A stretch of 64,000 bases of DNA from an uncultured Actinomyces sp. Lineage in GTDB: Bacteria > Actinomycetota > Actinomycetes > S36-B12. The notes under the pieces are model-generated. The model saw only the letters and a program-made list of their open reading frames with translations. It did no database searches and was not told the origin of the DNA. Of the stretch, positions 41,446 to 42,813 are shown in pieces; position 1 is the stretch's first letter, and each line of letters starts with the position of its first letter. The position numbers and the translations under genes are program-made. The stretch covers positions 9,316 through 73,315 of the forward strand of contig CAZICY010000004.1 in NCBI GenBank assembly GCA_964537955.1, written 5' to 3'.

Positions 41446-42813
41446 ATGGATCGTCGGCACTTCCTCGGTGCATCGGGACTCGCCGCCGCCGCATTCCTCG
41501 CCGGGCCCGGGGACGCGCTCGCGCTCGGTCGCCGACGCGTGCCCGAGCCAGTGTCCGCTCTCGTCACGCGCTGGGACACGGATCCGTGGTCGCGCGGGTC
41601 CTACTCCGCCCTTCCCGCCGGCACGTCACCCTCGGTGCGCCGCACCCTCGCCGACGCGATCCTCGGGGGGCGTATCGCGCTGGCCGGCGAGTATGCGAGC
41701 AAGGCCTACCCGGCGACGACGACCGGCGCCTACCTTTCCGGGCGGCACGCAGCCGGGCGCCTGCTCGATCGCGTCAACGCACGGACGGCGATCGTCGTCG
41801 GCGCGGGCCTGGCAGGCGCGGCGGCGGCCCATGACCTTCGCGCGGCCGGCGTCGAGGTCACGGTCGTCGAGGCGCGCGATCGCGTCGGAGGACGCATCTG
41901 GAGCAATGAGCAATGGGGCGTGCCGGTCGAGCTGGGCGCCGCGTGGATCCACGGCACGCGCGGCAACCCGATCGTGCCGCTCGCCCGCGCCGCGGGACTC
42001 GGGCTCGTGCCCACGGACTACGACGACGCCGTCGCGCGCGACACGCTCACCGGCCTGCCATCTGCGAAGGCAGAGGCGCGATGGACGCGCCTGGATGGCC
42101 TGCTCGAGCAGCTGGGCGAGGCATGGCCGCCGAGATCGCTCAGCGTTGCGGACTGGCTCGCACGCCAGGACTGGACGACCGGTCGCATCGATGCGTGGGC
42201 CACGCAGGTCGAAGTCACGCAGGAGTACGGGCTCGACCCGGGCCGACTCGGCGTCCGCGCCACGGAGGAAGGTGCGGCGTACCGCGGCGGCGACGTCCTC
42301 GTCGCGGACGGCTACGTGACGATCGTCGACGACCTGCTCGAGGGCATCGACGTGCGACGCGGCGTGGCGGCCAGGTCCGCTGCCGTGAGTGGAAGGCGCG
42401 TGGACGTCGCACTCGCCTCGGGCGAGCGTCTCTCCGCGGACATCGCGGTGATCGCCGTGCCGCTCGCACTCGTGCGCGCCGGCCTGCCGAAGCTGCCCGA
42501 CATGGGCCGCGGCGTGCGCACCGCCCTGCGCGGGCTCGTCACGGGAGTCTTCGAGAAGGTCGTGCTCCGCTACGACGAGCAGTGGTGGGGTGACCACCGC
42601 GTCTACGGGATCGTGGGCGGCGGCGCCCCGGGCGCTCCCGCAGGGTCCGCGGCCGCCCTGCGCTGGACCGAGTTCTACTCGCTCTCCGACGTGCTCGGCT
42701 TCCCCGCCCTCGCGGGTTTCAGTGGCGGATCGAGCGCTCGGTCACGGCCTGCCTCGGATGCCGGCTGTGCGACGGAAGCACAGCGCGCCCTCACCGCGGC
42801 CTTCGCCGGCTGA
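41446..42813 (+). CDS. Tat-signal flavin amine oxidase with apparently circularly permuted domain order
   Basis: ATG 41446 gives [22 protein letters not shown] (twin-Arg motif). Next comes [13 protein letters not shown]…[11 protein letters not shown]…[16 protein letters not shown], normally the C-terminal segment. Then [40 protein letters not shown], normally the N-terminal Rossmann motif. The protein ends just where the first segment would normally begin. Confidence 0.7.
   Translation: [455 protein letters not shown]

Follow-up and report, generated by a model that had tools for sequence, protein, structure and literature searches.

The 64,000-nucleotide stretch of DNA that we analyzed (the window) contains, at 41446-42813 (+), a single uninterrupted open reading frame of 455 amino acids. 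This gene most probably encodes a naturally circularly permuted FAD-dependent amine oxidase from the PAO/SMOX/LSD branch of PF01593, with predicted Tat export and predicted oxidation of a polyamine-like amine (we give this reading a probability of roughly 0.85). The permuted order itself is confirmed: a twin-arginine signal (amino acids 1-26) is followed by a segment that matches the C-terminal ~80 residues of amine oxidases of the PAO/LSD type (29-110, module A) and then by a segment that matches their first ~340 residues, from the GxGxxG Rossmann motif onward (111-455, module B). In canonical enzymes, the last ~80 residues close the FAD domain with the W..DP..GSYS strands, the "hAGE" FAD-ribityl motif, and a terminal helix. 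Each segment is present once, and the chain stops where canonical relatives go on into "vPdP..TRW.DP".

The swapped order is visible in both profile and pairwise comparisons. A Pfam profile search matched the protein to PF01593 (Amino_oxidase) in two stretches, with 149.7 bits (the cut-off is 19.8) and E = 2e-43. The best stretch places protein 122-448 on positions 1-360 of the 443 positions in the HMM, and the C-terminal ~80 positions of the HMM are absent from the protein's C terminus. Members of PF01593 are expected to be collinear, with the Rossmann motif first and the W..DP/hAGE/helix module last; the query is not. When compared to PDB sequences with phmmer, query 111-186 aligned to LSD2 335-411, query 277-394 aligned to LSD2 520-637, and query 29-105 aligned to LSD2 697-772 (i-Evalue 1e-10). 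Since query 29-105 corresponds to the C-terminal part of LSD2 and query 111-186 to the N-terminal part, the order is swapped. An earlier sequence-only reading of this DNA had described an apparent circular permutation of the FAD-binding domain, which the order of the Pfam and PDB matches bears out. It had also pointed to a paralog in the window with the normal order, and the protein encoded at 26620-27837 (-) does match PF01593 collinearly, in one stretch over HMM positions 1-442. By BLASTP, query 116-168 aligns to residues 4-60 of this paralog and query 39-113 aligns to residues 337-405 (E = 1e-7).

Module A (41530-41775, +; amino acids 29-110) is thus the relocated, canonically C-terminal module with the second FAD-binding motif. 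It corresponds to LSD2 697-772, LSD1 564-657, and paralog 337-405, and it contains vPeP..,.RGSYS ... LAGEY.., and the terminal helix. A linker at about amino acids 110-114 (RVNAR; 41773-41787, +) joins the old C-terminal helix (92-109) to Rossmann strand beta-1 (114-118), as assigned by DSSP on the AlphaFold2 model. Module B (41776-42810, +; amino acids 111-455) holds the Rossmann beta-alpha-beta unit, the GG motif, the substrate domain, and the putative catalytic lysine, and it ends in a helix (438-452). The cut point of the permuted proteins is a helix-loop-strand junction of the canonical relatives, in the loop between "...LR.vYG" and "svPdP..TRW". At this junction, the canonical protein P0153 reads "...AVLRTVYGRSVPDPTGVVVTRW", whereas permuted proteins stop after "...LRTIYGT". 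In the canonical relatives, module B ends just 2-3 residues ahead of the start of module A (in P0159, for example, B is 44-375 and A is 378-453). Because the same elements are present, each once, joined by a linker, and the chain ends in a surface loop, the structural set is complete and unduplicated, and only the connectivity differs.

The same architecture is found in many relatives. We examined the 120 best homologs (56-100% identity), which come from independent assemblies: all 117 that are full length have the permuted order, with RR at about residue 3, RWD.DPW at ~44, GxGxxG at ~120, and an end that resembles "...AL.AAFa". We also searched 1.84 billion cluster representatives (50%-identity clusters) exhaustively and classified the best 150 by piecewise phmmer, which gave 61 permuted proteins (A before B) and 82 canonical ones (B before A). 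Among the loci that we fetched, 64 of 74 were permuted. Permuted relatives from ENA, JGI, NCBI, and Logan assemblies share the order, the cut point, and the length (~455 amino acids) down to ~33% identity. Across 249 permuted sequences, the length of the linker varies by 0-2 residues and the C terminus lies a median of 3 amino acids from the query's end. The expectation that orthologs would share the permuted order, and that none would carry an additional normal C terminus, held among the homologs, representatives, and loci examined. The earlier reading had presented the protein as a permuted member of its family; the permuted architecture stands, but instead of a single member there is a large permuted clade. 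Its members are from Actinomycetota metagenome-assembled genomes (Nanopelagicales and Acidimicrobiia), all of them from metagenome assemblies. One Planctomycetota locus (L074) had been reported to cover query 32-453, but its translation shows a canonical gene, so this locus does not speak for permuted forms outside Actinomycetota.

The AlphaFold2 model is a single confident, compact fold that includes module A (mean pLDDT of 90.2, pTM of 0.88). Module A has a pLDDT of 87-98; amino acids 1-28 have a pLDDT below 50 and are therefore outside the fold. As predicted structures go, this agrees with the earlier suggestion that the permutation is structurally plausible. Foldseek matched the model to LSD2 (E = 9e-21, TMq of ~0.65), ZmPAO (1e-15), and PAOX (5e-15), each with a probability of 1.00. 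The top LSD2 matches have ~350-370 aligned columns, for which the hit list does not give the aligned residues. A sequential aligner is expected to miss the relocated ~80-residue module of a permuted chain.

The two modules are equally conserved: across 47 homologs, 15 of the 82 residues of module A and 59 of the 345 residues of module B are invariant. The invariant residues of module A include W43, G51, Y53, S54, A80-G81-E82, and G99; W43, G51, Y53, S54, and A80-G81-E82 stay invariant in sequences down to 54% identity to the query. In module B, the dinucleotide-binding GxGxxG motif (G119-A-G121-L-A-G124; 41800-41817, +) has invariant G119, G121, and G124, and residues 117-174 match NAD_binding_8 (PF13450, E = 4e-16). 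It is followed by E142-A-R-D-R146-V-G-G149-R150 (41869-41895, +), which combines the acidic residue that ends beta-2 with the R-x-G-G-R or "GG" motif, reportedly defined by Vallon in 2000; E142, A143, R146, G149, and R150 are invariant. The entire FAD motif set (GxGxxG, E142, R146-G149-R150, and the distal A80-G81-E82) is invariant in the 47 homologs, and we infer from these residues that FAD would be bound. The motif at E162-P175 (41929-41970, +) aligns to "ELGATWIHGSHGNP" of human spermine oxidase (7oxl) and includes His169, which corresponds to the active-site histidine of SMOX/PAOX-type enzymes. Within it, E162, G164, A165, W167, H169, and N174 are invariant, and the SMOX-type motif "ELGAxWIHG..GNP" is conserved in the family. 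The putative catalytic lysine (of the flavin N5-water-Lys type) is K371 (codon AAG, 42556-42558, +), which is invariant, as is E370. In the phmmer comparison to PDB sequences, K371 lies in "FEKVVLRY", which aligns to "IEKIALQF" of LSD2, within a ten-residue stretch that aligns to "GIIEKIALQF"; we take K371 to be the equivalent of LSD1 K661 and ZmPAO K300.

The twin-arginine (Tat) signal peptide (41446-41523, +; amino acids 1-26) had also been proposed from the N-terminal motif, and TIGR01409 supports it: the signal region scores 19.7 bits, which is above the curated cut-off of 16.7. The same region scores 19.1 bits against PF10518, just below the gathering score of 22.7. The N terminus fits an S/T-R-R-x-F-L-K-like motif with an uncharged h-region and an AxA c-region, and the sequence suggests a putative cleavage site after A26. 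Both arginines, R3 and R4, are invariant in the 47 homologs, and the conservation of L7 reaches at least 90%. Actual export and cleavage of the signal are predictions from these features. Many of the permuted relatives are predicted to be Tat lipoproteins. A link between Tat targeting and the permutation was ruled out, as RR-like signals are about equally frequent in both classes (41 of 61 permuted versus 53 of 82 canonical representatives). Canonical relatives are Tat-targeted just as often, so export does not explain the permutation, and the two features are independent.

We propose that module A, being encoded first, would be connected by a linker of ~4 residues to Rossmann beta-1, with the chain ending in a surface loop. 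The protein would bind FAD and fold in the cytoplasm, and the RR signal (amino acids 1-26) would send the folded protein via Tat to the outer side of the cytoplasmic membrane. There, the C-N bond of a polyamine-like amine would be oxidized by hydride transfer to FAD, aided by K371 and H169, and the reduced flavin would be reoxidized by O2, which would yield H2O2, or by another acceptor. Polyamines are the predicted substrates, and the electron acceptor is likewise a prediction.

Two explanations would deny that this is an intact permuted enzyme. A permutation could be mimicked by a chimeric contig, a wrongly called start, or a tandem duplication that had collapsed in assembly, and the sequence does come from the assembly of an uncultured organism, with the exact protein on one long contig; also, some pipelines call shortened forms that start after module A (a 350-amino-acid "monoamine oxidase"). 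However, such an assembly or annotation artifact is almost inconceivable. It is effectively refuted because hundreds of sequences that were assembled independently have this architecture; in addition, module A is conserved as strongly as module B, a second copy of module A was present in none of the 249 permuted sequences, and the start is shared: orthologous loci keep the ATG that lies at 41446 in the window, and in L007 an in-frame stop precedes it by five codons. Alternatively, the N-terminal module might be a decaying remnant or an independent appendage, and the protein a C-terminally truncated, inactive relic. This would fit with the best Pfam stretch reaching only HMM positions 1-360 and with Foldseek aligning only ~350-370 columns to the top LSD2 matches. 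But module A keeps its AGE motif and W43, G51, Y53, and S54 invariant, even in distant sequences, it is confidently predicted as part of a single fold, and purifying selection is evident in what is a large family, which makes a relic highly improbable.

Another alternative accepts the permutation but holds that the protein is a dehydrogenase: its electrons would go not to O2 but to an acceptor outside the cytoplasm (a cytochrome or a membrane carrier), and its substrate may not be a polyamine. The precedent is NicA2, which is exported by Tat and uses the cytochrome c CycN. NicA2 and Pnao-type proteins (Pseudomonas putida) are MAO-family FAD enzymes that have an N-terminal Tat signal and act on an amine outside the cytoplasm. 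The matches to PDB sequences include NicA2-type proteins (7c4a and 8dq7, "Amine oxidase"), and those of the permuted relatives that are predicted Tat lipoproteins would be held at the membrane surface. These matches are weak and are confined to the Rossmann region (query 115-189); NicA2/Pnao-type enzymes are canonical in order and form part of another subfamily, and the cytochrome c dedicated to them is not seen here. Against a dehydrogenase, neither a cytochrome c nor any other redox partner is a conserved neighbor of the gene across 74 loci. Furthermore, the best sequence and fold matches are to the O2-using PAO/SMOX/LSD enzymes, and the histidine motif of SMOX is conserved. Overall, a dehydrogenase seems unlikely.

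Among those O2-using enzymes, the best matches by both sequence and fold are LSD2/KDM1B and LSD1/KDM1A (phmmer 6e-39, Foldseek 9e-21), and a 12-residue stretch of the query's module A closely resembles "FPQTVTGAYLSG" of LSD2. Unlike LSD1 and LSD2, the query lacks the SWIRM, tower, and zinc-finger domains, and it is a permuted bacterial protein that is predicted to be exported. Histones are implausible as its substrate. ZmPAO (1B37), murine PAOX (5LAE), and human SMOX (7OXL) share the FAD amine-oxidase fold (Foldseek E ~1e-15, TMq of 0.57-0.63), along with GxGxxG, GG, "ELGAxWIHG..GNP" with its active-site histidine, the "EK" lysine, W..DP..GSYS, and AGE. In the query, however, the C-terminal module comes first, and it is just ~20-25% identical to these enzymes in the structural alignment; also, it has a Tat signal, whereas they have a Sec signal, peroxisomal targeting, or neither. 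Closer relatives are found among the canonical Tat-targeted PAO-like oxidases of bacteria (P0153, P0158, and P0236, from Chloroflexota and other metagenome-assembled genomes), which are up to 51% identical to the query once it is de-permuted. These proteins share the motifs and, in many cases, the type of signal (RR or Tat-lipoprotein), but their order is signal, Rossmann motif, and, at the end, the W..DP/AGE module. The formal relationship between the two forms (identical structural elements, with the original termini connected through a short linker and the new ones located in a surface loop) is the same as in swaposin and saposin, transaldolases, DNA methyltransferases, and lectins, whose folds differ from the query's.

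The amine-oxidase or GR2-type FAD fold, which includes MAO, LSD1, and PAO, is among the most studied of flavoenzyme folds; it is defined by a Rossmann motif at the N terminus and a segment at the C terminus that closes this motif. We did not find a specific model for the permuted form in NCBIfam or other curated families, nor a solved structure of a permuted member among PDB sequences. In searches of 8 million full texts and in a review of PAO phylogeny, we found no description of a permuted amine oxidase or flavoenzyme, or of a permuted GR2-type two-domain FAD fold. The earlier reading knew of no described permuted member, and our literature searches did not turn up a paper on one either. Thus, the protein is a real, conserved variant of a known enzyme family that was previously undescribed in the literature we found. 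A large natural clade with shifted connectivity and intact motifs shows that new termini at a defined loop are compatible with the fold, and this permutation point is a design site for engineered permutants, fusions, and biosensors based on MAO/LSD/PAO-type enzymes. The clade is also difficult to annotate: profile models, being collinear, reach only ~80% of the permuted proteins, and the first module is lost altogether with some gene callers. The family occurs in abundant freshwater Actinomycetota (Nanopelagicales and Acidimicrobiia) and is predicted to be extracellular, so the extracellular oxidation of amines or polyamines, with release of ammonium and H2O2, would be a testable trait of these uncultured lineages.

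The permuted form may have arisen by tandem duplication followed by truncation. There were no A-B-A duplication intermediates among the best 150 representatives or among the 249 permuted sequences. In a neighbor-joining tree of de-permuted sequences, rooted on the window's paralog, the permuted proteins were monophyletic in 0 of 100 bootstraps. The topology is star-like, with a purity of 90% for the best unrooted split. Only one alignment column is diagnostic of the permuted versus the canonical class, and the class purity of nearest neighbors is 92% (versus a mean of 50% after shuffling). It is possible, though quite unlikely, that the two forms were converted into each other repeatedly, always at this loop, within a Tat-exported PAO-like clade, or that it was adaptive to move the start of the chain from the buried Rossmann beta-1 to a surface loop beside the substrate domain. 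If adaptive, the move could provide a better-tolerated attachment point for a Tat signal or a lipid anchor, or it could alter specificity by placing a new N-terminal element where the substrate enters. Either evolutionary reading, if true, would provide a natural test case for the fixation of connectivity changes in a cofactor-binding fold.

The gene neighborhood gives no fixed substrate. ORF clustering over 75 loci did not identify a universal neighbor, but this clustering is noisy due to shadow ORFs in high-GC DNA. The gene upstream (39429-41393, +) encodes a secreted alpha/beta hydrolase of 654 amino acids with a TAP-like C-terminal domain (PF00561, 7.7e-17; PF08386, 6.5e-6), and the gap of 52 nucleotides between the two genes is as the earlier reading had it. 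That reading also proposed that the Tap-like peptidase and the oxidase form a pair. The proposal is borne out only in part, as the neighbor is conserved just in the window's own subclade: the Tap-like hydrolase is found in 14-15 loci, whose oxidases all share ~70% identity or more with that of the window, and in L007-L013, L015-L020, and L023 it is the directly preceding gene on the same strand. More distant members lack this neighbor. The two genes may be cotranscribed: no terminator-like site was found between them, but a promoter and terminator scan of 39000-43400 found nothing at all, so cotranscription is neither supported nor refuted. In about nine other loci, a different alpha/beta hydrolase is encoded downstream of the oxidase. 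In the window, the downstream gene (42837-43187, +), which begins 23 nucleotides after the stop codon, encodes a small metallopeptidase-like protein of the Zincin_1 family without a signal peptide (PF06262, 2.7e-33). This gene is a syntenic neighbor in the window's subclade, and tblastn places it downstream of the oxidase in about 22 loci.

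The amine oxidase at 41446-42813 (+ strand) is encoded by a single uninterrupted ORF of 455 codons. The sequence-only reading proposed that its domain order is swapped, and this is real and statistically solid by three comparisons. First, two stretches of the protein match the Pfam model for amine oxidases (PF01593; 149.7 bits); the better one places residues 122-448 on HMM positions 1-360 of 443, so the model's last ~80 positions are absent from the protein's C terminus. Second, when we ran phmmer against all PDB sequences, residues 111-186 and 277-394 aligned to LSD2 (4gu0) residues 335-411 and 520-637, while residues 29-105 aligned to 697-772 (i-Evalue, 1e-10). 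LSD1 gave the same pattern, with residues 27-109 on 564-657. Third, the paralogue in the window (26620-27837, - strand), which had been described as having the normal order, is indeed collinear with HMM positions 1-442 in one stretch, and by BLASTP its residues 4-60 and 337-405 match residues 116-168 and 39-113 of the oxidase. This paralogue (26617-27924, - strand) belongs to a different subfamily and can barely be aligned to the permuted enzyme beyond the Rossmann and C-terminal motifs; its top NCBIfam match is HpnE (85 bits, far under the model's cutoff).

The protein begins with a twin-arginine signal (residues 1-26; TIGR01409, 19.7 bits versus a cutoff of 16.7), in which the RR is invariant; PF10518 scores 19.1, just under its cutoff of 22.7. 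The canonically C-terminal module A (residues 29-110) follows, with the W..DP..GSYS strands, the distal FAD motif LAGE (A80-G81-E82 is invariant), and a long helix (92-109). About four residues link this helix to Rossmann strand beta-1 (114-118) and GxGxxG (119-124) of the canonically N-terminal module B (residues 111-455). Module B also contains E142, R-x-G-G-R (146-150), a 14-residue motif that is nearly identical to ELGATWIHGSHGNP of human spermine oxidase, and an invariant E370-K371 that aligns with IEKIALQF of LSD2, and it closes with a helix (438-452). The two modules are equally conserved: module A has 15 invariant residues out of 82, and module B has 59 out of 345. Canonical relatives are continuous across the cut point (for instance, P0153 has ...AVLRTVYGRSVPDPTGVVVTRWGRDRF), while permuted relatives terminate at ...LRTIYGT and, after the signal, open with VPDP...TRW. 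This is a textbook circular permutation, with a minimal linker joining the old termini and the new termini in a helix-strand surface loop.

An AlphaFold2 model from a 47-sequence alignment has a mean pLDDT of 90.2 and a pTM of 0.88; module A has pLDDT of 87-98, and only residues 1-28 have low confidence. Foldseek matched the model to LSD2 (E = 9e-21), ZmPAO, PAOX, and a bacterial MAO in the PDB (query TM-score of ~0.65). The LSD2 matches cover ~350-370 aligned columns, in a list that gives no residue ranges; a sequential aligner that missed a relocated module of ~80 residues would be expected to give an alignment of this size. Homology and model confidence, rather than a superposition, suggest that module A probably occupies its canonical position.

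An artefact in the window's gene is ruled out by the same order in independent homologues and loci and by the conserved start codon. We searched 5.8 billion proteins with a word index and obtained 717 matches at E ≤ 1e-10. The best 120 of these (56-100% identity) came from NCBI, JGI, ENA, and Logan assemblies, and 117 were full length; all 117 have RR near residue 3, RWD.DPW near 44, GxGxxG near 120, and a C terminus of the form ...EA..AL.AAFa. We also ran HMMER exhaustively against 1.84 billion representatives of 50%-identity clusters, which gave 974 matches below 1e-30. When the best 150 of these were classified with residues 29-110 and 111-455 of our protein, 61 were permuted, 82 were canonical, and 7 were fragments; none had module A on both sides of module B. 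Similarly, 64 of 74 fetched loci were permuted, with 9 partial and 1 canonical. Across 249 permuted sequences, the linker length differs by 0-2 residues, and the median distance between the C terminus and that of the query is 3 residues. The start codon is kept in orthologous DNA, and in L007, the locus that best matches ours among GTDB representatives (85% identity), an in-frame stop lies five codons before it. One 701-residue homologue (P0147) joins a fragment of the permuted type to a C-terminal extension of ~380 residues with no relation to amine oxidases; this may be a true fusion or the product of a frameshift or read-through.

In a scan of GTDB representatives, the permuted loci were all from Actinomycetota MAGs, mostly freshwater "Candidatus Nanopelagicales," and none were from a cultured isolate. 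Some freshwater MAG contigs bear titles such as "Bifidobacterium breve" or "uncultured Actinomyces sp." (L031, L049, L058, L066, and L070; L007-L009, L023, and L025), which look like taxonomic mislabels of Nanopelagicales-like genomes. Acidimicrobiia/Acidimicrobiales MAGs are the source of a second permuted group, represented by P0180 and ~40% identical to the query. In many of these proteins, a lipobox cysteine follows the RR (...SAVAGC or ...LAMAC, as in P0180 and P0186), and a regular expression found this cysteine in 23 of 41 Tat-like permuted representatives; this predicts that part of the permuted family consists of Tat-dependent lipoproteins. The nearest canonical sequences share 45-51% identity with the P0180 group and have source labels such as Chloroflexota, Anaerolineae, and Caldilineaceae. 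A Tat-like signal is present in 41/61 permuted and 53/82 canonical representatives, at about the same frequency, so export is a trait of the wider clade and neither a consequence nor a cause of the permutation. A locus on a Planctomycetota chromosome (L074; OZ245006.1, ~5.83 Mb) appeared to match residues 32-453 in full, but its translation has the canonical order: the coverage figure pools HSPs that are out of order, so figures of this kind are no basis for inferring permutation.

Did the permutation arise once? A neighbor-joining tree of 56 permuted and 70 canonical representatives, after de-permuting, was star-like, and with the distant window paralogue as the root, permuted monophyly was found in 0 of 100 bootstraps. 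The best unrooted split was 90% pure (61 canonical and 4 permuted versus 52 permuted and 9 canonical), and only one alignment column was diagnostic. For 92% of sequences, and for 98% of permuted ones, the nearest neighbor was of their own class; with shuffled labels, this share averaged 50% and never exceeded 66%. No permuted sequence had a canonical relative that was clearly closer than its closest permuted relative. Our reading is that the permutation probably reflects one or a few old events.

All cofactor and catalytic motifs of PAO/SMOX/LSD-type oxidases are kept, so we expect from sequence that the protein is active. Most likely, it would work outside the cytoplasmic membrane and use O2 to oxidize a polyamine-like amine, either secondary or primary; we infer both substrate and acceptor. 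Alternatively, it might act as a NicA2-like dehydrogenase; no conserved redox partner lies near the gene in the loci examined. Given the habitat and the general biology of these lineages, we hypothesize that freshwater Actinomycetota might use the oxidase to scavenge nitrogen from dissolved amines.

We rate the permuted enzyme as a variant within a known family, not a new type of system. Every PDB match is canonical and aligned out of order, no specific NCBIfam model exists, and neither full-text literature searches nor a PAO phylogeny paper (PMC7576179) mentions a permuted amine oxidase. In the source records, these proteins are annotated generically, as "FAD-dependent oxidoreductase," "monoamine oxidase," or "polyamine oxidase." Some gene calls start internally (L004 at 6268-7320; P0393, P0394, and P0058, a 350-residue "monoamine oxidase" or "phytoene dehydrogenase-like protein"), which drops the relocated module, so the product resembles a C-terminally truncated canonical enzyme. 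The permuted form should interest specialists in flavoenzymes and protein evolution and has practical use in annotation and engineering.

The gene upstream of the oxidase (39429-41393) encodes a secreted alpha/beta hydrolase whose C-terminal domain is TAP-like. In 14-15 loci, all with oxidases at least ~70% identical to ours, a Tap-like gene directly precedes the oxidase gene on its strand, and about 9 more distant loci have a different ~300-residue alpha/beta hydrolase just downstream. This recurrence lends slight support to the proposed hydrolase/oxidase pair, but the neighbour is not universal: most loci have neither hydrolase. Downstream are a Zincin_1 protein (42837-43187), two tandem secreted paralogues of ~215 residues without a Pfam match (43194-43841 and 43911-44555, - strand), and then Sua5; many related loci have homologues of the tandem pair (39-87% identity) on the downstream side of the oxidase. 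A scan of 39000-43400 for terminator-like or promoter-like sites found none and was uninformative. A conserved TG(G/A)CAG(G) element precedes the oxidase's start codon by ~10-16 nt (~41427-41436 in the window), at the same position in L007-L022. It may bind ribosomes or have a regulatory role, and some over-extended gene calls translate it as WQG. Three clustered tRNA genes (Phe-GAA, Asp-GTC, and Glu-TTC; 38753-39035, - strand) lie a short way upstream of the Tap-like gene, and several listed "ORFs" there are shadows of these tRNAs.
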